The notes beneath the pieces were generated by a model. It saw nothing but the letters and a program-made list of their open reading frames with translations. It was not told the DNA's origin and did not search any database. A stretch of 64,000 nucleotides of DNA from a virus. The position numbers and the translations under genes are program-made. Position 1 is the stretch's first letter. Each line of letters begins with the position of its first letter. Shown in pieces: positions 348-57,047 of the stretch. The stretch lies in the IMG/VR virus record IMGVR_UViG_3300020039_000026; one strand, given 5' to 3'.

Positions 348-1168
348 GACATCTAAAGCCGTGGAATGTGGACACTCTTTCAAGCGATAACGCCATGTTC
401 CTGCGAAATGCAGGTCGGTAACGTCCTGAAAAGGTGAATCCGTAAAATGTAGAACGTGGGTCGCTTGAGAAGGTGCCACATCCAAGCAATCAACTAAAGG
501 CGTGATTTCGTGGGGCTTCTATTAGAGTGCTTCGGGTTGGGTGGTGCCCTCCTTCACCGCCCTCCCTTTAATGCGGCCAGTTCACCCAAAAGGTGCTGAC
601 AGTGACAAGCCTGTATAACGCAGAGTCAAAGGGTTTCTGATGAGCAATAATCGACCGATGAGCGCTATTTGAGCGCCACGCTGCACATGGCTATATATGT
701 GCCGCCTGGTTCCCCTGATGGGGCGTCGTATCGGAGTAGACGTGCGGCGTGCCGGGGCGTAAGTACGGCAATGGCCCGGTCGTGAAGTCCTGAGCTGACC
801 GGTGAACCAATCGCGGCTTGCGTGATAGGCTAAGCATGAGAATTTCAGATTCAAAATGATTTTGATGCGCCCTCTCTTGAAGCCCGCTTGTACCGTGGTT
901 TCTCAACGAGGAATTACGATAGGGTGAATGGAGAAAAGCAAGGGGTGATCCTCCTTGGGGCTGTGCTGAAATCCCAACGGGATGGATGTACGGATGCGGA
1001 GAGTCGTGAAGGGTTTGAAATTTGAGTGATACCCAAAGTTTGCACAATTCACGCATGGCGTGAAGTCTATATATCAAGCGCCCCGGTCTTTGTCCTGTAA
1101 TGGGACAGCCGGGACGCTTTCATATGGGCTTCGGCCTATAAAATGAATTGATGAAAGGGGTTTGCACC

Positions 1169-6180: not shown

Positions 6181-6775
6181 CATGGGAGACCTCCAATTAA
6201 CCCAAAGGGCAATGCGCAGGAACATTGCCCGCCCTAAAGCCGCCAAAGCCGGTTCAAAGCCCGGTTGGGAAAGGCTGATGAGGGTCTTGGCGTCGAATTG
6301 AGTTGCCTTGAGAAAGCGGTTCACTAACGTCACTATCCTGTCCGTACATCGCCGCCGAACATCCGGTGGCGCGCTTAGAATAGAGTGTACGGCAAAAGCG
6401 CAAATGATATGGCGCACTTACCAATCTCCGTCCGGATAAGGCAGCGGACGTAAAGAAGATTGATGCCCAGTCGTGCAGATGTCAGAGGGTACACGGCAGG
6501 AGTCAGGGTGGTTTGGAGGACGCTCCCGCCATCCGGTCCTAAAGCAGCCAATGACGGTCTCAAGCCCGTATGAAAAATGCCGAGAGGGGCGTTCCAAATT
6601 CCAATGTGAATTTTGGTTCGATTCGTCGCACCGCTACACCATCAGAACGCAAAGTGAGAAAGGATGAAGTGTGATGTACCATGCGAGGTCGCCCACTAAG
6701 TTTCTAGAAGTTCGCAGAGAAGTCTGAGTTTCAAAATCAATCCCAATCTACATAGAATTAAAGGAGATATGAATC

Positions 6776-15082: not shown

Positions 15083-15159
15083 CTGGGTGTAGCGAAGCTT
15101 GGTATCGCGCTTGATTTGGGATCAAGAGATCGCGGGTTCAAGTCCCACCACCCAGACCA
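15083..15159 (+). tRNA. tRNA-Pro (anticodon TGG), CCA encoded
   Basis: Acceptor CTGGGTG/CACCCAG, D-stem GCGA/TCGC, anticodon stem CTTGA/TCAAG with loop TTTGGGA, T-arm GCGGG-TTCAAGT-CCCAC (one C-A mismatch), ACCA end. Confidence 0.7.
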
Positions 15160-15556
15160 TTGGAAAGCGCATCTTTCCAATCTGTATGAAAGACTACCGT
15201 GAGCGGAGGACGCAGCGGATAGGCACCATGATGTCACGTCTTTTGTATAGAAAACGAATCAAAATACGATATATGATAGGCGTAGGCTACTGCGGCTTTA
15301 TTAAGAAGAAACGGATGCTACCCTGATGCGCGGGGAGCGGCAGTGAAAAGTTCCGTGTCGCATGATGATTCCTGGTTACATATGTAGATTGGGTGGTACG
15401 CGAGATCATCCAGGGCGAAGAAGCTGAAGTTCGTTCCGGATAGAAGAAACTGAGCATACGAGGAGCGGTCCGGAGAGGGTATGGAGAACCTCTGATATAA
15501 GTTCTGCCATGCGTTGTAGTTTGCTTGGTTTCGCCAGGATTCATCATGCAATGTGA

Positions 15557-15629
15557 GGGGCCGTAGCTCAATCGGCAGAGCGCCTGCTTTGCAAGCAGGA
15601 GGTAAGGGGATCGTAACCCCTCGGCTCCA
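15557..15629 (+). tRNA. tRNA-Ala (anticodon TGC) with non-canonical T-loop ATCGTAA
   Basis: Acceptor GGGGCCG/CGGCTCC (G3-U70 pair typical of tRNA-Ala), D-stem GCTC/GAGC, anticodon loop TTTGCAA, T-arm AGGGG-ATCGTAA-CCCCT. No CCA encoded. Confidence 0.6.
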
Positions 15630-15659
15630 TTCCTATTTGACTGTTCCGGAGGTTTTCCC

Positions 15660-15833
15660 ATGGCTGAATCGCAAGAGTATACGATCGTGTTTACGCCGGA
15701 TTGCTTTCACCCGGATATCAAAATCACCATTGCAGTACCGGCCGACCATGACGCGGAAGAATACATCGACCAGTATCTGGAATCCATTCTAAATAATAAT
15801 ATCCTGTATAACTGCGAATGGTCGTTTGCTTAA
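15660..15833 (+). CDS. Small hypothetical protein (57 aa)
   Basis: ATG ORF below the ORF-track size cutoff. Plausible acidic small protein between tRNAs. Confidence 0.3.
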   Translation: MAESQEYTIVFTPDCFHPDIKITIAVPADHDAEEYIDQYLESILNNNILYNCEWSFA

Positions 15834-15919
15834 TTGACCGCTTCAACATTTTGGGATATCAAACGTAATAAACACGTTACCTGCTGGATGCCGCTTCCCG
15901 AACATCCGAAGGAGAAAAC

Positions 15920-16105
15920 ATGAAGTGCAAAGACTGTAAATACTGGCAGATGGAAGATGAACCACCCGGCATCTCAGAGTTTATGGAATGTACACGCATT
16001 GACGAAAACGACCCTGACTGGTGGAAGAAGTGGCATTTTCGCGGGCCGGAAGATTCATGCGAATACGGGGAAAAGAAAGGAAGTTGGCAATCGCCCTTTG
16101 GATAG
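15920..16105 (+). CDS. Small Cys-rich protein
   Basis: 61 aa with GGAGAAAACATG RBS. CKDCKYW...C...C pattern suggests a zinc-binding fold. Confidence 0.35.
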   Translation: MKCKDCKYWQMEDEPPGISEFMECTRIDENDPDWWKKWHFRGPEDSCEYGEKKGSWQSPFG

Positions 16106-16162
16106 AGCCCTGTGTGAAATCCTCCGCATAGTGCAGAATGCTTTTCAGTTACGCAGCTCTAT

Positions 16163-16247
16163 GTCCCTGTGGTGGAATTGGCAGACGCGGGGGAATTAAA
16201 ATCCCTCGTCTTCGGACGTGTGAGTTCAAATCTCACCAGGGACACCA
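16163..16247 (+). tRNA. tRNA-Leu (anticodon TAA), class II with long variable arm, CCA encoded
   Basis: Acceptor GTCCCTG/CAGGGAC, D-arm GTGGTGGAATTGGCAGACGC (Leu-like), anticodon loop ATTAAAA, variable hairpin CGTC-TTCG-GACG, T-arm GTGAG-TTCAAAT-CTCAC, ACCA. Confidence 0.7.
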
Positions 16248-16249
16248 AA

Positions 16250-16570
16250 GGAATAACTGAAAAACGGGTTGGGAGGAAACAAGCTTTATTCTCGCTGCCA
16301 CCCAAAGGCAGAGAAGCAGATGGCGTACTGCACCCGTCACATAGCGTAGGTTATTCCATCCTGATGTATCCCGGCGAACAGGCCAAAAGCCGGGTGGTGG
16401 AGTGGACCCAGAGGGACGACGCGTGGGGGTGGTATCCTACGCAAATAAACCGCCAGCACAACGACTCCCTGTAGCTGGTAAACCAAAAGGCAGGCGTTTT
16501 CGTGGAGGGATACCGTAGAAGCGGAACGCAGAAGGCCAATGGTATGGGATTTACATTCATGCGGTTTGCC
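16250..16570 (+). ncRNA. Structured noncoding region with a conserved hairpin motif (16362-16398) and nested inverted repeats
   Basis: No ORF. GGAATAAC (16251) pairs with GTTATTCC (16349). GCGTAGG (16342) pairs with CCTACGC (16439). Motif TGATGTATCCCGGCGAACAGGCCAAAAGCCGGGTGGT recurs at 16652 with compensatory stem changes. Confidence 0.35.
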
Positions 16571-16575
16571 CATAA

Positions 16576-16648
16576 GGCTCCTTAGCTCAATCTGCAGAGT
16601 ATCTGACGATTAATCAGTATGATGTTGGTTCAAATCCAGCAGGAGCCA
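16576..16648 (+). tRNA. tRNA-like gene with non-canonical anticodon loop CGATTAA (G at position 33, nominal anticodon ATT). Identity unassigned.
   Basis: Perfect 7-bp acceptor GGCTCCT/AGGAGCC, D-arm GCTC-AATCTGCA-GAGT, T-arm GTTGG-TTCAAAT-CCAGC, 73 nt. Anticodon stem TCTGA/TCAGT has a terminal T-T mismatch and the loop lacks U33. Confidence 0.4.
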
Positions 16649-16649
16649 G

Positions 16650-17010
16650 ATTGATGTATCCCGATGAACAATAAAAATCGGGTGGTATGCTGTGGCTACA
16701 GGCGGAGTAGCGCTCCGCAGGGCTCCCGTTCCTAACCCTGGCCATGAATGCCTGTGGGGCTCATGGCCAAAGAACGGCTTCTGTGCGGGTAGCCTGGCGG
16801 CGATGGGTTCGATTCCCATGACTCGCGCAAGTGGCCGGGTAGCGCCCGGCTGATGTGAGCGTCCGCGCAACACCTCACAAAGAATGACAATGGCCGCTGA
16901 AAACGTACTTCGGCACATGTCCGGTCGCATGACTTCCCTCGACCGTCAGGGTGCATGACACGATCCGTCAGCGAAGCACGATAATCTAAGCGGCAAGCGC
17001 CCATTTCAGT
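16650..17010 (+). ncRNA. GC-rich structured noncoding region starting with the second copy of the covarying hairpin motif (16651-16686) and containing a tRNA T-arm-like element ATGGG-TTCGATT-CCCAT (16808-16824)
   Basis: Only antisense-looking ORFs. Multiple local hairpins (GGCGGAGTAGCGCTCCGC, GGCCATGAATGCCTGTGGGGCTCATGGCC). The T-arm-like element is followed by GACTCGC, which could pair with GCGGGTA upstream as a minihelix. Confidence 0.3.
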
Positions 17011-17094
17011 AATTCATTTGAAAGGTGGTATACATATGGAAATCCTGTTAACCAAGAAATCCCCTATGTGTATGCACGCCAGTAAGGAGTCACT

Positions 17095-17499
17095 ATGAGC
17101 AATTGGACACATGTAGCGGCCATCGTCCGCCTGGACTGTATTCGTCCACTGTATGACAGGGATCCTAATATGGATGACCTGTTCGGAAAAGAATGTTTGT
17201 GGGATGCGCCGGGAGAAGTTCGGAGCGACGCGGAGAAGCATCCTGAAAACTACCTGCCAACCGGAAGCGAGGGAAGCCTGCATAAAAGCGTGTGGATTAA
17301 TCCGAACCGTCAGGAGATTCCCGCCTTTGTCATTTCCATTTTCGGTGATCTGCGCGATCATGATTCTTCCCAGGAAATCATTGAGTGGTTTAAGAAGAAA
17401 TGCGAAAAGGCGATGGAGTTCCATTGCTTTATTCGCAATGCTGTGATTACTGCGGAGAATGAATGCAATGGTTCCGCGCATTGGGAGTACGAAGAATAG
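17095..17499 (+). CDS. Hypothetical protein
   Basis: 134-aa ORF with AAGGAG RBS. Confidence 0.5.
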   Translation: MSNWTHVAAIVRLDCIRPLYDRDPNMDDLFGKECLWDAPGEVRSDAEKHPENYLPTGSEGSLHKSVWINPNRQEIPAFVISIFGDLRDHDSSQEIIEWFKKKCEKAMEFHCFIRNAVITAENECNGSAHWEYEE

Positions 17500-17574
17500 G
17501 CCGAATGATCCCGTACATCAAACGTTCCCGAATTACGGTGGTAAGCTGACCGGCGAAAGCCTACGCGCCGAAAA

Positions 17575-17596
17575 TCGGATTTATGCCCGCCCGGTT
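17575..17596 (+). terminator. Hairpin terminator candidate just upstream of tRNA-Gly
   Basis: GCCCGCC-CGGTT-GGCGGGC followed by TTTG. Confidence 0.4.
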
Positions 17597-17668
17597 GGCG
17601 GGCTTTGCAGCCGTAGTGTAATGGCAATCACACCGTCCTTCCAAGTCGGGTTTGCGGGTTCGAGTCCC
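17597..17668 (+). tRNA. tRNA-Gly (anticodon TCC)
   Basis: Acceptor GCAGCCG/CGGCTGC, anticodon stem CCGTC/GTCGG (one T-T mismatch), loop CTTCCAA, T-arm GCGGG-TTCGAGT-CCCGT. No CCA. Confidence 0.6.
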
Positions 17669-17673
17669 GTCGG

Positions 17674-17775
17674 CTGCTTTTATGGGAGAGTAACCAAGAG
17701 GTCAAAGGTGCGAGACCGTAAATCTCGCGTTCTGATATGCCGCGCTAAAACAGAACTTCGCTGGTTCAAATCCAG
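17674..17775 (+). tRNA. tRNA-Tyr-like (anticodon GTA) with unusually long 28-nt variable arm and C at position 33. About 102 nt, possibly aberrant.
   Basis: Acceptor GGGAGAG/CTCTCCC with one extra nt before it. Tyr-like D-arm AACCAAGAGGTCAAAGGT. Anticodon stem CGAGA/TCTCG with loop CCGTAAA. Variable arm GTTCTG-ATATGCCGCGCTAAAA-CAGAAC. T-arm GCTGG-TTCAAAT-CCAGT. Confidence 0.4.
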
Positions 17776-17783
17776 TCCTCTCC

Positions 17784-17872
17784 CATTTTCTTTGGAAGGT
17801 TGGCTGAGCCTGGCTGAAAGCACCGGTCTTGAAAACCGGCAGCCCCAAAAGGGGCTCGTGGGTTCAAATCCC
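17784..17872 (+). tRNA. tRNA-Ser (anticodon TGA), class II
   Basis: Acceptor GGAAGGT/ACCTTCC with G73 discriminator, anticodon stem CCGGT/ACCGG, loop CTTGAAA, variable hairpin AGCCCC-AAAA-GGGGCT, T-arm GTGGG-TTCAAAT-CCCAC. Confidence 0.7.
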
Positions 17873-17905
17873 ACACCTTCCGCTTTTTGATTGGAGGAAT
17901 AAATC

Positions 17906-18325
17906 ATGACGGAATATCAACGGCAGGCAGAAGATTTTTTAGCCCGCAGCGGGACGACCATGAAAATCACACGCGACGGCGATGTGCGCGGCTTCCCGTT
18001 TGACAAAAGCGATCATCATATGCATGAGAAGTATCTCATCTCCATGCGTCGCGGCTGTCGCTCCTATGAGTTTCCTTTTTATGACTGTGCGGCGAACTTC
18101 CACACAAACAAGCGGCCAACCGCATATGATGTTCTGTCTTGTCTGGAAAAGTACGAAGTACCATCGGATGATTGGGATTTTGCACATGAGTTCGGCTACG
18201 ACATCCACGATAAAGAAAGCTTCAATCGCGTGTCCAAAATCCGTAAGGCGTGTGAAGAGCAATATGCCGCCCTGTATCTTATGTTCGGGGATCAATGGAT
18301 GGAAGAACTTAGGCAAATCAACTAA
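17906..18325 (+). CDS. Hypothetical protein
   Basis: 139-aa ORF with GGAGGAATAAATCATG RBS. Confidence 0.5.
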   Translation: MTEYQRQAEDFLARSGTTMKITRDGDVRGFPFDKSDHHMHEKYLISMRRGCRSYEFPFYDCAANFHTNKRPTAYDVLSCLEKYEVPSDDWDFAHEFGYDIHDKESFNRVSKIRKACEEQYAALYLMFGDQWMEELRQIN

Positions 18326-18382
18326 CCTATTGTCTGTTCATGAAAAGGATTAAGAATAGATAATCCAAAGCAGGTACTCCTT

Positions 18383-18787
18383 TTGGTTGTAAATGGGGGA
18401 ATATCTTTGTATATCCGAAAAAGTATCCATTCCATTGAGTCCGTCTACGAAGCCGTTCATGATACGATGTTCAATCCGAAAACCACATACATCCTATTCG
18501 ATGGCGATGAAATCAAAAGCACAAGTCAGCGCTATCAGGTATTTTTTACAAAAGGGATTCGCTGCGTTTCGTGCGGCATCGAAGGGAAATATTTTGCCAA
18601 GGAAAAAGGGCATGGTTCATCACAAGATCGCTATCACCTTAATTTATACGCCATTGACGAAAATGGCAAGGAAGTCCTGATGACCAAAGACCATATCATC
18701 CCAAGATCAAAGGGTGGTTTGAATCGTCTGGAAAACTATCAAACGATGTGTCAAATCTGCAATAGCAAAAAGGGAAGCGAACATTGA
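18383..18787 (+). CDS. HNH endonuclease, free-standing
   Basis: C-terminal HNH motif HIIPRSKGGLNRLENYQTMCQICNSKKGSEH with CxxC zinc ligands. Confidence 0.6.
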   Translation: MVVNGGISLYIRKSIHSIESVYEAVHDTMFNPKTTYILFDGDEIKSTSQRYQVFFTKGIRCVSCGIEGKYFAKEKGHGSSQDRYHLNLYAIDENGKEVLMTKDHIIPRSKGGLNRLENYQTMCQICNSKKGSEH

Positions 18788-18794
18788 TAGGTCT

Positions 18795-19595
18795 ATGGAT
18801 AAAGCATGGGTACAAGAAAAGGAAGCACAAAGGGCTGAAGAAATACGGCTTACCAAAGAAACTATCCGCCGGAAAATCTTAGACGCAGGGCTTCAGGAAT
18901 ATGTCGATGTTCTCTTAGCTGGCGTAGATAAGAGCTTTGATCTTCACGTATCATTTTTGTGCGGTTCAATAGAAATACTTGACGCAATTAAGAAGAAAAC
19001 TACTGGCAACAAAGAGCTATTTGCTTCTATTATCGAAAAGTATTGCTTGTTTGAGCATAGCATCCGCGAAGAGTTGGAAAAACTTTTTCAGCTTAAATAC
19101 AGCTTCCAGCAATTTTCCGACTCAGATCTGGTCGAGTTTGATGGGGATATTATCATTACAGATCCTTGCTATGTCATGCGAGACGACGCCGAAGATGATT
19201 GGGAAAAGTGTTCTTGCGGCGAGAACATGGACGAACTCGGCATCCATCACTTCATGAGCCGCAGTACCATTATTGGCGACTGGAGCTGTACTGTCTACAA
19301 TACAGATAATCATAGGAAGATAGGTGAGTTCTGCGCCGATGCGGGAATGGTTTCTGTTCTCCTGCTAAATGAAGTCCTTCAATACAATCCGTCCTTCGAC
19401 TATCATATAAATAGGAAGTGGACGACGGCGCTGATAAAGAATTTCAAAGGAACCGTTCAGTTTGTTGTTCACGAGGTACACTTTGAGTACAATGGCGAAG
19501 ATCATGTGGGCTACGAGGTGGAAGTAGTTGGGCATGGTGTCAATAAGAAAACCGGCAAGCCTTTCAACTTTTCGTCAAGACAAACCGGGTTATAA
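18795..19595 (+). CDS. Hypothetical protein
   Basis: 266-aa ORF. Confidence 0.5.
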   Translation: MDKAWVQEKEAQRAEEIRLTKETIRRKILDAGLQEYVDVLLAGVDKSFDLHVSFLCGSIEILDAIKKKTTGNKELFASIIEKYCLFEHSIREELEKLFQLKYSFQQFSDSDLVEFDGDIIITDPCYVMRDDAEDDWEKCSCGENMDELGIHHFMSRSTIIGDWSCTVYNTDNHRKIGEFCADAGMVSVLLLNEVLQYNPSFDYHINRKWTTALIKNFKGTVQFVVHEVHFEYNGEDHVGYEVEVVGHGVNKKTGKPFNFSSRQTGL

Positions 19596-19631
19596 AATTA
19601 CGCTTTTATTAATCGATAAGGAGGTAAACCT

Positions 19632-20042
19632 GTGGCATTTTGGAATAAAAAGAAGAAAAAAGATGAAAAGCAGGAACTTCCTATTAAAATATTATCCCCT
19701 TGCGAGCGTGGTGAACACCGTTACAAGGATTTTGATTGGTATATCAAAACATATGTTGATCAGTCCTATTATAACAACCGATATGTCGTTACGGTGATCG
19801 AACCATATGTCTGCATCCATTGCGGGCACCGCGAAGATCAGGAACTCGGCAAATGGATTTTTGCAAAGAAAACGGATAAAACCGCATTCGTTGAGCATCT
19901 CAGCAAGAATCCAAACATCAAGCCAATCATCGAAGTGGAAGACGCCATTCACGATATGCAGCTTGTCGATCGAGAGTATCTTTCAATTTTTCAGCAGCTC
20001 CATCCAGATAAAAAGATTTTGGATGAAGCCAAGCCGGATTAA
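19632..20042 (+). CDS. Hypothetical protein with Cys/His pairs
   Basis: 136-aa ORF with AAGGAGG RBS. CERGEHRY...CIHCGH suggests a zinc-binding fold. Its 3-prime end overlaps the tRNA-Thr start. Confidence 0.5.
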   Translation: MAFWNKKKKKDEKQELPIKILSPCERGEHRYKDFDWYIKTYVDQSYYNNRYVVTVIEPYVCIHCGHREDQELGKWIFAKKTDKTAFVEHLSKNPNIKPIIEVEDAIHDMQLVDREYLSIFQQLHPDKKILDEAKPD

Positions 20043-20105
20043 CTCAATTGGCAGAGTGCCGCTTTTGTACTGCGGAAGCTGCGGGTTCAATTCCTGTATC
20101 CGGCT
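20033..20105 (+). tRNA. tRNA-Thr (anticodon TGT)
   Basis: Acceptor GCCGGAT/ATCCGGC, D-stem ACTC/GAGT, anticodon stem CCGCT/TGCGG (terminal T-T), loop TTTGTAC, T-arm GCGGG-TTCAATT-CCTGT. No CCA. Confidence 0.55.
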
Positions 20106-20107
20106 CT

Positions 20108-20181
20108 GCCCCTGTCGCCTAAATGGAATAAGGCACCGGTTTCGTACTCCGGAGATGCTGGATCGTACCCAGCCAGGGGCT
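20108..20181 (+). tRNA. tRNA-Thr (anticodon CGT) with non-canonical T-loop ATCGTAC
   Basis: Acceptor GCCCCTG/CAGGGGC, D-stem GCCT/AGGC, anticodon stem CCGGT/TCCGG (terminal T-T), loop TTCGTAC, T-arm GCTGG-ATCGTAC-CCAGC. No CCA. Confidence 0.5.
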
Positions 20182-41031: not shown

Positions 41032-42378
41032 TTGATCGAGGGCTCAAGCGCGAGCGACATTAAGAATATCGAGGCAGAGGCTGGCGTCATCGCCTCGATC
41101 TTAATGAATCCAGAACTCACTTTTTACTCGGAACAACTTAAACCAAATCATTTCACAGACACGCAAAACGCATACGTTTATTGGGCGGTTCGTGAGCTTG
41201 CAAAAAAAGGTATCGATAAGGTTGACGCTTACAATATCAGAAACATGATTTCTGCGCGGCGCGGAACGGAAAAGGCTGCGGAAATCATTACCATCCAATC
41301 GTTGAACGATCTGATTGATGTCGCAAAAAATATTGCCAGGGGTTCGCCGGAAGATTATAAAGCCATCGTCGACCATGTTCTTGACGCTGCTTTCAGGCGG
41401 GATACATATTTAAAGCTTATCGAGTGCGAGCGCCTTTGCTTTAACAGCACGGAGACGGGGATCGAGCACAAGATTTATGAAACGCTCGATAACGTTATGA
41501 TGGAGTTTTCAACCGCAAACGAGGTACCTCAATACAAGGACGTTGTAGAACAATATTGGCAGGAAATCGAGGAACGCCAGTCGCCCGAAAACAATGGCGC
41601 TATACCGTTTAAATTCCAAAATCTTAATTCCTACGTCATGATTGAACGTGGGGAATTAGTTATTTTTGGAGCTGAACAAAAGATGGGAAAGTCCATGCTT
41701 TTGCTGAACTGCGCAGTTGATCTGCTCAGGCGCGGGCTTCGCGTCCTGTATCTGGACAGTGAATTGAATTCAAGGTTATTTACCTGCAGAATGATTTCCC
41801 ATTTGACAGGCATTGAGTTTCGCCGTGTTCGTTCCGGCCAGTACAACGAAGAAGAACATAAGCGAATCGAAGATGCCGTTGCGTGGCTAAAAACACGGGC
41901 ATTTACCCATCTGTATATGCCGGTATTCGATGAACAAAATATTTACACAGTCGTCAAAAAGGTTTATCACCAGCAAGGTATCGACGTTCTGATTATCGAC
42001 TATTTCAAGGGCGGTGATAACGAGGATGCATTTGCCACCTACCAAAGCCTCGGCGGCCTTACAGACTTGGTCAAGAATGAAATCTGCGGCAATATGAACA
42101 TCGCCGGTATCGGCGCGGCTCAGGCAACCGCCACAGGTAAGCTGGCAGACAGCGCGAAGATCGCCAGAAACGCCTCCACTATTATCATGGTACAGAGCAA
42201 AACACCAGAAGAAATAGAAGCTGACGGAGACGAGTGCGGAACAAAGAAGCTCTTTGTCAGGTTCAATCGCAACGGCCCGCAAATGACGGACGGAGAGTAT
42301 ATCGATATGGTGTTTAACGGCGATAGAATTTTGTACGAAGAAGCGCCAAAGCAACATATCCCAGATACCCCATACTGA
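41032..42378 (+). CDS. dnaB: DnaB-like replicative DNA helicase
   Basis: DnaB N-terminal-like region (EAEAGVIASILMNPE), Walker A FGAEQKMGKSMLLLN and RecA-like core. 448 aa. Confidence 0.7.
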   Translation: MIEGSSASDIKNIEAEAGVIASILMNPELTFYSEQLKPNHFTDTQNAYVYWAVRELAKKGIDKVDAYNIRNMISARRGTEKAAEIITIQSLNDLIDVAKNIARGSPEDYKAIVDHVLDAAFRRDTYLKLIECERLCFNSTETGIEHKIYETLDNVMMEFSTANEVPQYKDVVEQYWQEIEERQSPENNGAIPFKFQNLNSYVMIERGELVIFGAEQKMGKSMLLLNCAVDLLRRGLRVLYLDSELNSRLFTCRMISHLTGIEFRRVRSGQYNEEEHKRIEDAVAWLKTRAFTHLYMPVFDEQNIYTVVKKVYHQQGIDVLIIDYFKGGDNEDAFATYQSLGGLTDLVKNEICGNMNIAGIGAAQATATGKLADSAKIARNASTIIMVQSKTPEEIEADGDECGTKKLFVRFNRNGPQMTDGEYIDMVFNGDRILYEEAPKQHIPDTPY

Positions 42379-42744: not shown

Positions 42745-43233
42745 GTGCAGACAGAGGAGGAATATATGAGAGTTATCTTTCTCGATATTGACGGTGTCCT
42801 GAATGAAGCCTATTCGCATTCCAGAGCGCCAAATGGGTGTATCGGCGTCGATGATGATAAGGTGCAAAGGCTACGGCAAATTGTTGATGCCACCGGGGCA
42901 AAAATCGTCCTGTGCTCCACCTGGAAATCTGGTTGGAGCCGCGATCCGGAGCTTTGCGACCACGACGCGGAGTATTTAAACAAAAAGCTCAGCCGTGAAC
43001 ACCTTCGCATCCTTGATAAAACGCAGGATCAGATTATAGATCGTGGCGCTGGTATTCTCCGCTGGCTTGAAAAAAGAAGCGACAAGCCAGCATGGATCGT
43101 TCTGGATGACGATATCTTCAAGGATTATGAAGAATGTGGTGTCATGTCGCATTTGGTCAAAACGTCTTTCTATAAAGGCGGATTGCAGGACGAGCATGTG
43201 AAAAGGGCGATCGACCTGCTGATGGAGGGGTGA
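42745..43233 (+). CDS. HAD-superfamily phosphatase (DxDG motif I), Pnkp-phosphatase-like
   Basis: VIFLDIDGVLN is HAD motif I. Motif II/III candidates LCSTWK and WIVLDDD. 162 aa. Confidence 0.5.
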   Translation: MQTEEEYMRVIFLDIDGVLNEAYSHSRAPNGCIGVDDDKVQRLRQIVDATGAKIVLCSTWKSGWSRDPELCDHDAEYLNKKLSREHLRILDKTQDQIIDRGAGILRWLEKRSDKPAWIVLDDDIFKDYEECGVMSHLVKTSFYKGGLQDEHVKRAIDLLMEG

Positions 43234-44240
43234 TGCCTTTGGAGGTTTCCGATATTCTTGATGCCGTAGATATGGCTGAGTATATTTCTCAGTATACAGA
43301 TCTAAAAGAAGAAAACGGTGAGCTTTGGGGGCTTAGTCCCTTCAAGGATGAAAAGACGCCATCCTTTTCTGTTCGCCCTGAAACAGGATATTTTTATGAT
43401 TTCTCCGCAGGGTTCGGCGGGAATCTGCTTGATTTCATCATGCGGTATGACAATATTTCCCTTATCCCAGCGATCAATAAGCTGAAGGCATACGCCCATA
43501 TCACGGACGCTCCTGCCGGAGACATTGCTTCAGGGAGAATGACGGCTACCAAAATTGCCAAGAAATATAGGCAATCCGCAAAACCACAAACAAAATGTAC
43601 TGCAAAAATCCTTCCGCCTTCTTATATGAATCAGTTTGAGTTCAGAAAAGATAAGCTGATGCCGTGGTATGAAGAGGGAATCCCGTGGGAGGTCATGTGG
43701 GAATACGGCGTCCGTTACGACGCCCTTGACAACCGCATCGTCTATCCAATTAAGGATCTGCAGGGCAATATTTTCTGCGTTTCCGGCAGAACGTGTGATC
43801 CTGATTGGAAGCAAAAGAAAATACGGAAATATACATATACAAGTTCAATCGGCGCATTGCCAACCATCTATGGTTTTTCAGACCATCTTCAGTACATCCG
43901 AGAAAGCAAGGAGATCATCCTTTTTGAAGGATGCAAGAGTGTTCTTAAGATGGTCGGGTGGGGAAAGAAAAATGCTGGAGCACTGCTCACTTCCCATTTG
44001 TCTCCGGCGCAATTTGATTTTTTGGTAAAGCTCGCGTCTTTCGACGGGGTGCGGATCGTGTTCGCATTAGATTCAGACGTAGATCTTACCAAGGACGACA
44101 ACGTGAAGCGGCTTTGCTCCTATGCAAGAGTGGAGTGGGTCCGTAATATAGATGGCTTATTGAACGATAAGGACTCCCCTGTTGACAAAGGGAAAGAAGT
44201 TTTTGAGAAGTTGTATAAAGAAAGGAGGCGGCTTAACTGA
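43230..44240 (+). CDS. dnaG: DnaG-like DNA primase (zinc-less N-terminal domain plus TOPRIM)
   Basis: GLSPFKDEKTPSFSV...YFYDFSAGFGGNLLDF parallels the CPFHxEKTPSF...CFGCGxGG primase block without the Cys ligands. TOPRIM-like ILFEGCKSVLKMVGWG...ALDSDVD. Confidence 0.6.
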   Translation: MMPLEVSDILDAVDMAEYISQYTDLKEENGELWGLSPFKDEKTPSFSVRPETGYFYDFSAGFGGNLLDFIMRYDNISLIPAINKLKAYAHITDAPAGDIASGRMTATKIAKKYRQSAKPQTKCTAKILPPSYMNQFEFRKDKLMPWYEEGIPWEVMWEYGVRYDALDNRIVYPIKDLQGNIFCVSGRTCDPDWKQKKIRKYTYTSSIGALPTIYGFSDHLQYIRESKEIILFEGCKSVLKMVGWGKKNAGALLTSHLSPAQFDFLVKLASFDGVRIVFALDSDVDLTKDDNVKRLCSYARVEWVRNIDGLLNDKDSPVDKGKEVFEKLYKERRRLN

Positions 44241-44284
44241 GCGAAAGGAATTATGTTGCCATTCACGTTCACAGCGACTACAGC

Positions 44285-46424
44285 TTGCTGGACAGCTGTA
44301 CGGACTTTAAAGAATATGTCGATCTCGCCAAGAAATACGGCCAGAAAGCCATCGCCACAACCGAACACGGTATGCACAAGGGCTATATTGCCAAGAAGCT
44401 CTACTGCAATGAGGTCGGCATGAAGCTTCTCATTGGCGTAGAGGTTTACTTAACTGAGCAGCTTGAGCCAAAGGTCAGGGATAACTACCACACTATCCTG
44501 ATCGCTAAGAACGAAGAGGGCTTAAAGGAAATTCATCGGCTGATCCGCATGTCCACCCAGGACGATCACTTCTATTATAACAACCGGATCTCATTTGATG
44601 AGTTCCTGAATATTTCCGATAACATTATCAGCACCAGCGCCTGCCTCGCTTCCCCTTTAAATAAGCTTCCGGACGATCATCCGTATTATATGCGGCTGGC
44701 GAGAAAGTATAATTATTTAGAGGTTCAGCCCCACAACCACCCGGAACAAATCGCGTTCAATAAAAGGCTGCTTTTATTATCACAGAAAATCGGCACACCG
44801 CTGATCGTTGGCACAGACACGCATAGCTCCACGCCTTATATGGCAGAATGCCGCGCCGTACTGCTTGCCGCCAAAGGCAAAAAGTACCACGACGACGAAT
44901 TCGATCTTACATATAAAACCTACGATCAGCTTGTTGAAATGTTTCGTATCCAGGGCGCTCTTCCGGAAGAGGTTTACCTTGAGGCGCTTGAAAATACCAA
45001 CGTACTTTCAGACAGCGTCGAAGATATTCCTCTGGATACCTCCATTAAGTATCCTATTCTGTACGGCTCCCGCGAAGCGGATGACCAGAAGTTTGCCGAA
45101 ACAGTAGAAAGCAAGTTCCGTGAAAAATTGGAATCCGGCATCATTCCTCAAGAGCAGGAAGCAGCCTTCCGTTCGGCAATTGATGAAGAAATGCGCGTGT
45201 TCAGAAAGCTGAAAATGACGGGCTTCATGCTCTCCATGTCTGAGCTTATCAGCTGGTGCCGCAATAACAATATCGCTATCGGCACGGCTCGCGGTTCCGT
45301 CGGCGGTTCGCGCATCGCATATGTCACCGATATTATCGACCTGAACCCAGAGCAATGGCATACGGTCTTCTCGCGGTTTTGCAACGAGGACCGGGTTGAA
45401 ATCGGGGATATCGATATCGACTGCATTGAAACAGACCGCCCGCGCATCTTCGAGCATATCATTTCCAGATTCGGCGCGGATAAATGCGCCCGCGTGGCTT
45501 CTTACGGCACTATCCAGGATAAGAAGGTCGTCGATGAAGTTGGCCGCTATCTCGCGGATCAATGGAAAATAAAGCATCCTGATGGCGGCGACAATCCATA
45601 TTCCATCAAGCAGCTCATGAAGATCAAACAGGAGTTCGAGAGCAATCCAGAAAAAACAAAGGAAAAGTATCCGGAAATTTTCTACTATTTCGATGGCTTG
45701 ATGAATACGAAGATCAGCCAGAGCGTTCACCCTGCCGGTATGGTTATCAGTCCGATTGTGCTAAGTGAAAATTATGGCACTTTCATGAAAGACGGCGAAT
45801 GGTGCCTGATGCTTGATATGGAGGAGGTTCACGACGGCTGCGGGCTTGCCAAATACGATTTTTTGATTCTGAAAACGGTCCAGGTAATTCGCGATACATG
45901 CCGTCTGATTGGCGTGCCGTACCCAAGAACACACGAAATCAACTGGAACGATGAAGCGGTCTGGGCAGATATGCGAAAAAATCAAACGGCGATTTTCCAG
46001 TTTGAAAGTGTATTTGCAGCAGATTGCTTCAAAAAATTCAAAACAGACAGCATCGAAGATATGTCTCTGGTTACTGCCTGTATCCGCCCGTCCGGCTCCT
46101 CCTACCGTGATGAACTACTGGCAAGAAAGGTTCATAAGAATCCGTCCGCCATCATCGACGAGCTGTTAAAAGACAACCTGGGCTGGCTTGTATATCAAGA
46201 GGACACCATCAAGTTCCTCCAGCAGATTTGCGGGCTGTCAGGAAGCGAGGCCGATAATATCCGCCGTGCCATCGGCCGTAAGCAAAAGGATCGTCTGGAT
46301 AAGGCTATGCCATCCATTTTGGAAGGATATTGCAATAAGTCTGATAAGCCAAGAAAGGAGGCGGAGGCCGAAGCAAAAGAATTTTTGCAGGTTATCGAAG
46401 ACAGCGCCAGCTACCAGTTTGGGT
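44285..46424 (+). CDS. dnaE: DNA polymerase III alpha subunit, exon 1 (PHP domain and polymerase core). Ends ...SYQFG plus one nucleotide before the intron.
   Basis: PHP motifs IHVHSDYSLLDS and ATTEHGMHKGY, plus the DnaE palm/fingers region. The ORF stops at TAA 46424-46426, just inside the proposed intron. Confidence 0.75.
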
Positions 46425-47255
46425 AAATGATTTGCCCTTTGCAGCAGAGATGTTGTATTATAACGATGTGAACACATATCAAAGTGGTGTATCAGCAACG
46501 AAAGTAACTGCAGGAAATGGCAGTGTATGCTGATGCTAACAGGGAAACCTTCTCGTAATTTACGAAAGGCAATCCTGTGCCAAGCTGAGTTCTAAGAAAG
46601 GAGGATGTGTTTATGTGGAAGTCTATTAAAGGATATGAAGGTTACTATGAAGTTAGTGACGATGGCCGCGTTAGGAGTCTCGATAGAATAGTCAAAAACT
46701 TTGGTGATTACCAACGTCATCTCAAAGGGAAAGAGATGAAATTAACTATGGCGAACAACGGATATTATGTTGTCAATCTTCGCAAAAAAAGATCAGCTAA
46801 GGTTTTTACCGTTCATACTCTTGTGGCGCAAGCATTTATAGATAATCCAAATAATTACCCGACCGTAAACCACAAAGACGGGAATAAGCTAAACAACAGA
46901 GTCGATAATCTCGAATGGGTTTCTTACGGCGAAAACAATGTTCATGCTATTGTGCATAATCTTCGTAGACCACGAGGAGTATCAGTCTCGCAGTTCGATC
47001 TCTTCGGAAATATAATTGCCGTATTTCGTTCTGTCACAGAAGCCTCAAGGCAAACCGGTGTTTCGAGAGAAAGCATTTCTTTGTGTGTAAACCACTATAC
47101 ACATTCAGCCGGAGGATATATCTGGAAAAGGGACTCAGAAGGTCAAACGACTATCTCGAAAGAGAGTACACCGGAGACTGATGCCGGTGGAAGCGCATCG
47201 CATCCGTAATGGATGAAGATATAGTCTATACCATCAGAAATGATGGAATAATATG
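46425..47255 (+). other. Group I intron candidate interrupting dnaE, carrying an HNH homing endonuclease ORF
   Basis: Exon 1 ends in U (46424) and the intron ends in G (47255). Joining 46424 to 47256 gives a seamless frame ...SYQFG-Y-NHSIAYCLLGYL... that aligns with E. coli DnaE [19 protein letters not shown]. Candidate internal guide GCCC (46435) pairs with exon GGGU, giving a U-G wobble at the splice site. Confidence 0.55.
46607..47209 (+). CDS. HNH homing endonuclease (NUMOD4 plus HNH plus C-terminal DNA-binding module), intron-encoded
   Basis: GYEGYYEVSDDGRVRSL (NUMOD4), VNHKDGNKLNNRVDNLEW (HNH), ASRQTGVSRESISLCVNH (IENR/NUMOD1-like). Confidence 0.7.
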   Translation: MFMWKSIKGYEGYYEVSDDGRVRSLDRIVKNFGDYQRHLKGKEMKLTMANNGYYVVNLRKKRSAKVFTVHTLVAQAFIDNPNNYPTVNHKDGNKLNNRVDNLEWVSYGENNVHAIVHNLRRPRGVSVSQFDLFGNIIAVFRSVTEASRQTGVSRESISLCVNHYTHSAGGYIWKRDSEGQTTISKESTPETDAGGSASHP

Positions 47256-48235
47256 ATAATCATTCAATCGCTTACTGCCTGCTTGGTTATCTGTGCGGAT
47301 ATTACAGGCACTATTACCCAGGCGAGTTTATCACAGCCTTTTTGAATAACGCCGCCAACGACGACGACATCAGCAACGGCACATTACTTGCCAGGGTCTA
47401 TGGTATCAAGGTCACGCCGCCAAAATTCGGCGCATCGCAGAGCGAATATTCCTATAACCCAGAAACTAAAGAAATCGCAAAAGGTCTTTCGTCCATTAAG
47501 TTCATCGGGGAAAAGCTTGCAATCTCTCTGTATGAAATGTCCAGGCAACATGAGTATACATATTTTTCAGATGTGCTTGCCGACGCCCATACATACTGCG
47601 GAATCGACGCCAGACAATTGGATATTCTTATCCGAATCGACTTTTTCAGCAAGTTCGGCAACCAAAGGGAACTGAAACGCATTGTCGATCTATATGATAT
47701 GTTTTCTGGTGCAAGCCAAATTAAAAAAAAGAAAATCGAAGGATCCTATTTTGAAGAAATCGTCGCCAAGTACGCGAACGGCCTTACAAAAACAGGAAAG
47801 GAAGCGGCCTCCTGGACGATAATCGATAACGCAGCTATCATCCATGACTGTGAAAAAAAGATATTAAGTCTTGATCTTCCTGATATGAACATCGTTTCCA
47901 AGGTAAGGAGTTTCGCTGAAGCTATGGGATACGCGGGGTACATTTCCGGCAGCGACGAGGACAGAGCAAAGCTGTATATCAGAAAGGTTTTCCCCGTAAA
48001 AAGGAAAAAGGACGGGAAGCAATTCGGCTACAGCATCCTCACGCAGTCGATTGGATCTGGGAAGGAAAGCAGATTTACGATTTTCAATCCAGTTTTTGAC
48101 GCCGACCCTATTAAAGAAGGCGATGTAATTCTTTGTAAAGGATGGCGTCGCGACAACGGTGGTTACTTTACTATGACTGCCTACAAAATTTTGCGCGGTG
48201 ATGACATGGACGAAATTGAGGAGGAAACAGCGTGA
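47256..48235 (+). CDS. dnaE: DNA polymerase III alpha subunit, exon 2 (C-terminal region). ORF track shows it as 47342-48235.
   Basis: The frame is open from 47252. IAYCLLGYLCGYYRHYYPGEFITAFLNNAANDDD aligns with DnaE [37 protein letters not shown]. No independent RBS and ATG at the junction. Confidence 0.65.
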
Positions 48236-56712: not shown

Positions 56713-57047
56713 TACATATTGCGGGTAGCCAAGCACTAATAGGCGAGAAGAAAATATAGCTCATACGGTGGGACACCAGCGGAGAGGACCGCGTCACCAA
56801 CATCCGTGCAACCCAACCTGAGACGCGCGTGATTGCGCATATACAGAGGACGGAACAGGCAGCCGTCGCCATAAATAAATAGGAGATATGGAAGTGTCGC
56901 TCCATCTGTATATGCAACTGCACGCCCCGCAGAGAAAACGAGAGCGGCACACCGGCATCGTGTTACTGTACTACCTCGCAGTAACCATAGCGGTAACTTT
57001 GACCTTTCGGTGCGCCCTCTTATTCATAATAAACAAAGAAACCACAC

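Follow-up and report, generated by a model that had tools for sequence, protein, structure and literature searches.

An insert in the dnaE gene of an uncultured gut-type phage is very probably a mobile subgroup IA group I intron

The td intron of phage T4, which carries I-TevI, is the archetypal IA2 intron: it includes P7.1 and P7.2, and the open reading frame (ORF) in its P6a loop is served by a separate ribosome-binding site beside a ribozyme helix. In phage DNA polymerase genes, group I introns have been described from Bacillus phages SPO1 and SP82 (I-HmuI and I-HmuII), Bastille (I-BasI) and other Bastillevirinae (PMC11878797). The A-family polymerase genes of the Bastillevirinae are intron targets at multiple sites, and the HNH enzymes encoded by these introns belong to phrog_59 (PMC11878797). 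For phage dnaE, a literature search turned up no description of such an intron. Here, we report an 831-nt insert that interrupts dnaE, the replicative DNA polymerase gene of a gut-type phage of roughly 110 kb, of which a 64,000-nucleotide stretch (the window) was analysed. The insert, at 46425-47255, is very probably a mobile group I intron of subgroup IA (IA2-like), for which splicing and homing are predicted from the sequence. Features are collected in Table 1.

The insert resembles the SPO1, SP82 and Bastille introns in combining a phage IA2-type ribozyme with a phrog_59 NUMOD4-HNH enzyme and in occupying a conserved polymerase block. As in those systems, relatives carry several introns per gene, and Rfam sees partial cores that are split by the ORF loop. 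However, the host gene in the window encodes a C-family PolIII-alpha (DnaE) and not an A-family, PolI-like enzyme, hosts of the window type are uncultured phages of ~100-140 kb, probably of gut Clostridia, and there is no detectable nucleotide similarity to the Bacillus phage introns outside the universal 3' core. Like that of T4 td, the ORF is looped out from P6a and has its own ribosome-binding site by a ribozyme helix, and P7.1 and P7.2 are present; unlike td, the endonuclease is of the HNH and not the GIY-YIG type, and the ORF leaves its loop to read P6a', P7, P7.1, P7.2 and P3' into P8. The HNH ORF is also about 40% identical to the endolysin-interrupting ORF of the lysK gene of Staphylococcus phage K and relatives (Twort-like phages); both host gene and insertion site differ. 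Within dnaE itself, introns of the related phages L078 (1999-2315 and 3094-3370) and L069 (2017-2296) have the same core blocks as the window (GCCAAG..., AAGGUUCAACGACUAUC, GAGUA, GAAG and GAAGAUAUAGUCU), but interrupt the gene elsewhere, near aa 381 and aa 641. Those of L078 are without an ORF, and that of L069 has a LAGLIDADG-like ORF upstream of the core.

Table 1. Features of the interrupted dnaE locus, in window coordinates.
Feature	Position	Strand	Basis or remark
dnaE exon 1	44237..46424	+	PHP, DNA_pol3_alpha catalytic and finger domains (Pfam); last base is the T of the split Tyr codon
Probable group I intron, 831 nt, subgroup IA (IA2-like)	46425..47255	+	frame restoration, sub-threshold RF00028, covariation, match to ORF-less introns
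P1	GGGU/AAA 46421-27 with UUUGCCC 46431-37	+	sequence; U46424·G46434 at the 5' splice site
Internal guide sequence	46428-46437	+	part of P1 region
Peripheral P2 domain, three hairpins	46439-58, 46464-46500, 46507-24	+	RNAalifold
P3	UGAUGC 46531-36 with GCAUCG 47195-47200	+	100% paired in four close homologues
P4	46539-44 with 46573-78	+	Rfam local match 46539-46616, 16.3 bits
P5; J4/5 = AAA	46548-56 with 46562-69	+	compensatory changes
P6	G46579, C46580 with G47142, U47143; CAA bulge	+	analogy with L078 introns (GCCAAG...AAGGUUCAACGACUA)
P6a, 9 bp	46585-93 with 47130-38	+	encloses ORF; double-sided changes in 5/5 tested pairs
Shine-Dalgarno sequence AAGGAGGA	46598..46605	+	5' base of P6a loop; AGGAGGA invariant in seven homologues
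HNH homing-endonuclease ORF, 198 aa	46613..47209	+	NUMOD4, HNH_3, NUMOD1/I-HmuI-NUMOD-like (Pfam)
AAG between P6a' and P6'; J6/7 = CAAAC	within 47130..47153	+	Rfam consensus AAGGUUCAAaGACUA, L078 introns
P7	GACUA 47149-53 with UAGUC 47222-26	+	invariant in seven sequences
P7.1	UCUC-GAAA-GAGA 47154-65	+	compensatory changes in two pairs, 100% of cells paired
P7.2	CACCGG 47169-74 with CCGGUG 47184-89	+	compensatory changes in two pairs, 100% of cells paired
P8	CAUCC 47201-05 with GGAUG 47211-15	+	compensatory change; ORF stop TAA 47207-09 in loop
J8/7 AAGAUA, then P7'	UAGUC 47222-26	+	Rfam alignment, blastn
P9.0	AUA 47228-30 with UAU 47252-54	+	3/3 pairs covary
P9	CCAUCA-GAAA-UGAUGG 47231-46	+	GAAA loop; three pairs covary
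Terminal omega-G	47255	+	invariant in seven homologues
dnaE exon 2	47256..48235	+	starts AT, finishing the Tyr codon; HHH_6 domain (Pfam)

The interrupted gene and its restored product

The window holds a replication module in which a DnaB-like helicase (41032-42378) and a primase (43230-44240) are followed by dnaE, a metallophosphatase and then later genes. A protein search with the HNH ORF located a contig with identical sequence, of 106-114 kb, in JGI 3300011008 and ENA ERZ3810914. No cultured phage matched the dnaE region by megablast. The likely start of dnaE, judged from the sequence, is the CTG at 44237 and not the TTG at 44285 that ORF callers choose; in an N-terminal comparison, the intron-less P0122/L137 has TTG at the homologous codon, and L136 has CTG, as in the window.

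A preliminary description of this locus had proposed that the DnaE frame stops one nucleotide after GGGT and resumes at 47256, and this holds: the exon 1 frame is closed by a TAA at 46424-46426 and the downstream frame is open from 47252. Joining 46424 to 47256 creates a TAT (Tyr) codon and yields the product ...EDSASYQFG-Y-NHSIAYCLLGYLCGY..., with the junction-spanning protein stretch ...SYQFGYNHSIAYCLLGY... and the predicted ligated exon nucleotides ...CAGTTTGGGT joined to ATAATCATTC.... Two uninterrupted DnaE proteins, from C. difficile phage LIBA6276 (EYQFGYNHSTGY) and from a human-gut phage contig, align to the joined product without a gap. Furthermore, three intron-less, syntenic, single-ORF alleles (P0121, P0122 and P0124) are identical to it across the junction for at least 25 residues and are 80-84% identical to the spliced DnaE over the full length, so that the restored SYQFG-Y product originally suggested is what uninterrupted DnaE proteins contain. 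Intron-less alleles also give the nucleotides at the predicted target site, which read CAATTTGGGTATAACCATTCAATCGC in L137 and have GGC in L136. Splicing would unite the PHP, DNA_pol3_alpha and finger domains encoded by exon 1 with the HHH_6 domain encoded by exon 2 in one PolIII-alpha polypeptide, predicted at about 1055 aa. Gene callers cut this polymerase into fragments of 713 aa and 297 aa, from which the N-terminal HxH motif and the conserved NHSIAY...PGEF block are missing.

Within the window alone, the boundaries are ambiguous by 1 nt, as GGGT/A...G/AT and GGGTA/...GA/T give the same joined sequence. In the three most distant homologues (L139, L141 and L142), the introns start with A or U, and those of L141 and L142 start with U. 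Therefore, only boundaries that follow U at the 5' end and G at the 3' end restore TAT throughout, and the ambiguity is resolved.

The annotation of three separate ORFs by gene callers, and of 'DNA polymerase (x2)' together with 'HNH endonuclease' in related cultured phages, could instead reflect a free-standing HNH gene that has split dnaE into two independently translated, assembling polypeptides, in the manner of Aeh1 nrdA/mobE and other 'fractured genes'. Nevertheless, the exon 2 frame contains no ATG, GTG or TTG before 47342, which is 29 codons into the exon, and the junction lacks a ribosome-binding site, as first reported for this locus; so late a start would delete the conserved NHSIAYCLLGYLCGYYRHYYPGEF block. 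In addition, the codon is split as T/AT alike in every homologue checked. This includes the three most distant carriers (L139, L141 and L142), examined for independently translated fragments, in which tblastn places the end of exon 1 at ...SYQFG and the start of exon 2 at NHSIAY, even with exon-2 proteins that are only 50-54% identical. The ORF is moreover flanked by a covarying group I core, which would be needless in an intergenic spacer. A split gene is thus most improbable, and self-splicing, which the preliminary description had preferred over two independent polypeptides, is supported by the full core, by covariation and by intron-less alleles that equal the predicted ligated product.

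A covarying group I core

Matches of the insert to the Rfam group I model RF00028 are partial, at 24.7 bits (47052-47247) and 16.3 bits (46539-46616, P4 to P6), and do not reach the gathering score of 50 bits. We attribute the low score to the ORF-bearing P6a loop of 536 nt, which splits the core. The 24.7-bit match is meaningful only over P8, J8/7, P7' and P9; the Rfam alignment of 47052-47200 to P1-P3 is spurious, as this stretch is coding sequence. By blastn, the 3' core block is similar to many phage group I introns already known, and ORF-less dnaE introns of related phages score 71-87 bits in Rfam, above the gathering threshold. The structure of the window intron was solved by block-for-block comparison with these ORF-less, Rfam-passing introns in related IMG/VR dnaE genes. 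A manual fold with GACUG 47176-80 as the 5' strand of P7 was abandoned, since the Rfam-aligned L078 introns place P7 at GACUA 47149-53. Likewise, a long-range UGCAG/CUGCA helix considered for P2 gave way to three local hairpins on the basis of covariation.

Homologues for covariation analysis were found by protein search with the HNH ORF. Hits were 85, 78, 72, 64, 56 and 55% identical, and every one that was examined lies inside dnaE. Six homologous introns in other metagenomic phages occupy the identical split codon. An alignment of four sequences offers 346 cells, of which 98.8% pair; double-sided changes affect 19 pairs, compared with 0-3 when the 3' partners were slid by 1-3 columns. Extending the alignment to seven sequences and 63 core pairs, 94.4% of cells pair and 25/63 pairs change on both sides; slid partners gave 36-44% of cells paired and 1-7 double-sided pairs, and shuffles reached the observed result in 0/500 trials. 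Compensatory changes are seen in P2, P4, P5, P6a, P7.1, P7.2, P8, P9 and P9.0. Three pairs are affected in the first hairpin of P2 and four in the third, and the third pair of P4 is found as A-U, G-C and C-G. P3 is 86% paired in the seven-sequence alignment, and its own alignment is poor in the two most distant homologues. The insert therefore contains the elements of a group I core, namely P3-P6, P7-P9, the P3/P7 pseudoknot and covariation to support them. P7.1 and P7.2 between P7 and P3' are reportedly regarded by Michel and Westhof as marks of subgroup IA, and their presence places the intron in this subgroup, as IA2-like. The G-binding pair is presumed to be G47149-C47226, and J8/7 with P7' reads AAGAUAUAGUC, as in known phage introns, with P7 and J8/7 both invariant.

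At the 5' splice site, the proposal that this site follows a U able to pair with a candidate GCCC guide is borne out. GCCC 46434-46437 pairs with GGGU 46421-46424 to form the U·G wobble (U46424·G46434) within a 7-bp P1, and GGGU/GCCC is kept in all homologues whose sequence reaches the 5' end (6/6). An intron-side pair of P1 changes from A-U to U-A in L141. The exon side of P1 lies partly in a Gly codon, and this codon is GGG in 6/6 intron-bearing alleles versus 19/70 intron-less alleles (GGC 25, GGG 19, GGT 13 and GGA 13). The terminal G of the intron, also predicted earlier, is invariant (G47255). A candidate P10 would pair UGAUU 46428-32 with AAUCA 47258-62. This helix is weak, of 5 bp and offset by one nucleotide; covariation in the alignment lends it no support, and neither does a U-to-C change in L135 and L142.

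The sub-threshold Rfam scores, and an ORF that runs into the catalytic core in a way that could look like erosion, might be taken to indicate a decayed relic that no longer splices, with this dnaE copy a pseudogene and replication served by another polymerase. However, all core helices are intact, and substitutions across the seven lineages are compensatory and not disruptive. The invariance of P7 and J8/7, the two open and conserved exons, and the strong purifying selection on the ORF also argue against decay, which leaves this explanation very little probability.

The endonuclease reading frame and its overlap with the ribozyme

The preliminary description had recognized a NUMOD4/HNH endonuclease ORF in the insert, and Pfam agrees, finding NUMOD4 (E = 7.7e-18), HNH_3 (2.6e-7), NUMOD1 (2.3e-6) and an I-HmuI_NUMOD-like domain (2.9e-3). 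Translation most likely starts at ATG 46613, located 7 nt past the Shine-Dalgarno sequence, and not at GTG 46607. The product is assigned to phrog_59 (7.6e-52), and its closest solved structure is I-HmuI (PDB 1U3E, E = 4.5e-14), to which it aligns over the HKDGNK..NN..NL.WV block; the catalytic His is preceded by Asn in the window ORF versus Asp in I-HmuI. Going by these domains, the ORF is an I-HmuI-type NUMOD4-HNH-NUMOD1 endonuclease, and homology to I-HmuI is the ground on which its endonuclease activity, nicking as opposed to double-strand cutting, and its target site are predicted.

That the HNH ORF lies in the frame of exon 1 (46613-46424 = 189 nt), and that inteins classically occupy dnaE in cyanobacteria, might suggest an intein removed at the protein level; but the in-frame TAA at the junction (46424-46426), the ORF's own Shine-Dalgarno sequence and ATG, a 3' junction that is out of the ORF frame and preceded by a stop codon, and Pfam hits that comprise only NUMOD4, HNH and NUMOD1 with no Hint/intein domain refute it, the in-frame stop and absent Hint domain being decisive and the residual probability negligible.

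Comparison with the homologue L135 gives dN = 0.086 with synonymous sites near saturation over the ORF body, or a dN/dS of about 0.04; by this measure, the ORF is under purifying selection. At the nucleotide level, the ribozyme flanks are 93-95% identical to those of L135 and the ORF body is 78% identical; the corresponding values against L133 and L134 are 77-84% and 68-73%. The ORF tail at 47130-47209 (~26 codons, ~80 nt) also forms P6a', J6/7, P7, P7.1, P7.2, P3' and half of P8. Here dS is low and dN/dS is 0.4-1.0, indicating that it is the RNA, and not the tail of the protein, that is constrained. The position of the ORF stop drifts, being in the P8 loop in the window and L135 and after P9 in L134; in L133, the ORF runs to the 3' splice site and its stop codon spans the junction as TG/A.

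Predicted splicing and homing, and dnaE as an intron target

From these features, we propose that the dnaE pre-mRNA would fold into a P1-P9 ribozyme, in which free guanosine bound at the P7 site (G47149-C47226) attacks the bond after U46424, held as U·G46434 by UUUGCCC. The freed 3'-OH of U46424 would then attack the bond behind the terminal G47255, which P9.0 and a weak P10 would position. T and AT would thereby be joined as a Tyr codon, and the mRNA would encode a single full-length polymerase of about 1055 aa. Either unspliced RNA or the excised intron would serve as template for the endonuclease, whose gene has a Shine-Dalgarno sequence of its own. As I-HmuI and I-BasI suggest by analogy, the enzyme should nick the intron-less dnaE of co-infecting relatives near CAGTTTGGGT/ATAAYCATTC, and repair of the nicked allele would copy the intron in. 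The same intron family is found at one site in diverged phages, beside intron-less close relatives, in indirect support of homing.

The element is an ordinary kind of phage mobile element, in which an IA2 ribozyme and an HNH endonuclease of the I-HmuI type are combined in textbook fashion, and finding it in dnaE leaves current understanding unchanged. It does extend the pattern of group I introns with HNH enzymes in phage polymerase genes beyond the A-family polymerases known from Bacillus and Staphylococcus phages in culture, and into the C-family DnaE of uncultured phages that probably infect gut Clostridia. Recognition of the intron also restores a single PolIII-alpha annotation, of about 1055 aa, to an essential polymerase. 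In addition, the seven introns at the same site, together with the intron-less alleles, offer a system in which to study homing-site recognition and the overlap of coding sequence with a ribozyme.

Given that the ORF tail forms part of the ribozyme core, translation should compete with splicing: a ribosome on the endonuclease ORF would unfold the ribozyme, making the two processes mutually exclusive for each RNA molecule. A further-reaching proposal is that this competition makes the intron a timing or dosage switch for the polymerase and not a neutral passenger, and that dnaE of this gut-phage clade is an unusually dense intron hotspot with at least seven distinct sites; we put this forward tentatively and consider it, as a whole, rather unlikely. 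Among 80 IMG/VR relatives, codon 722 is free of an intron in every case (0/80). The retrieved region shows no interruption in 62 of them, and 18 are broken at other positions (approximate aa 37-49, 381, 445-468, 527-553 and 641, and aa 64-68). In cultured phages of Thomasclavelia and Lysinibacillus, dnaE is broken at still other sites. With so many break positions among relatives, dnaE of this clade appears to be a target for introns at multiple sites, as are the A-family polymerase genes of the Bastillevirinae.

Translation start of dnaE

The gene callers placed the start of dnaE, the phage Pol III alpha gene, at TTG 44285, the first canonical start codon in the frame, and the HxH motif of the PHP domain (IHVHSDYS; window 44220-44290) is found upstream of this position. 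The open frame reaches back to CTG 44237. This codon shares bases with the stop of the preceding primase gene (CTGA), and 8 nt upstream of it lies a strong Shine-Dalgarno motif (GAAAGGAGG, 44220-28). Two relatives whose dnaE lacks the intron have a potential start at the codon exactly matching CTG 44237, TTG in L137 (MSDKNYVAIHVHS...) and likewise CTG in L136. Taken together, the open frame, Shine-Dalgarno spacing, primase overlap and the codons in both relatives indicate that dnaE translation likely initiates at CTG, coupled to termination of primase.

The codon-722 intron and its homologues

In homologues of the group I intron that splits the Tyr codon 722 of dnaE, the stop codon of the HNH ORF shifts along the ribozyme, falling at a different structural position in each of three metagenomic phage loci (see the table). 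This indicates that the C-terminal tail of the HNH protein is merely whatever the ribozyme core encodes. On the exon side of the 5' splice site, all six alleles with the intron use GGG for Gly721 (46421-46423), and in 70 intron-less loci this codon is a mix of GGC, GGG, GGT and GGA. Such a GGG bias is consistent with either P1 pairing or a target preference of the endonuclease.

Related phages carry group I introns at further dnaE codons. Those of L078 are ORF-less, and in L069 a LAGLIDADG-like ORF (motif ...YWLGFLYADGYI...) precedes the ribozyme. Besides the codon-722 intron, L139 and L142 each have one more dnaE interruption, at aa 381/382 and 534/535, respectively.

Other RNA elements in the window

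All three matches to the type-P1 twister ribozyme (E-values 4e-8 to 1e-4) fall below the RF03160 gathering score of 67.2; they may be self-cleaving ribozymes of the phage genome. The skipping-rope RNA match exceeds its gathering score of 36.7. Within the cluster of nine tRNA genes, the gene at 17685-17784 may contain an insertion or intron, because it is 100 nt long and its score is just 34 bits.

Features in the window and in related phage loci (locus coordinates where a locus is named)
Feature	Position	Strand	Score (bits)	Detail
HNH ORF stop, L135	990-1010			TGA, P8 loop
HNH ORF stop, L134	700-760			TAA, directly after P9
HNH ORF stop, L133	1590-1620			TGA made across 3' splice site (TG before, A after)
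Group I intron, L078	1999-2315		86	ORF-less
Group I intron, L078	3094-3370		71	ORF-less
Group I ribozyme and ORF, L069	1150-2296		87 (ribozyme)	
Type-P1 twister match (RF03160)	565-632	+	49.9	sub-threshold
Type-P1 twister match (RF03160)	6231-6285	+	37.5	sub-threshold
Type-P1 twister match (RF03160)	6536-6590	+	44.1	sub-threshold
tRNA gene cluster	15083-20181	+		nine genes
Skipping-rope RNA (RF02924)	56839-56913	+	57.6	above threshold
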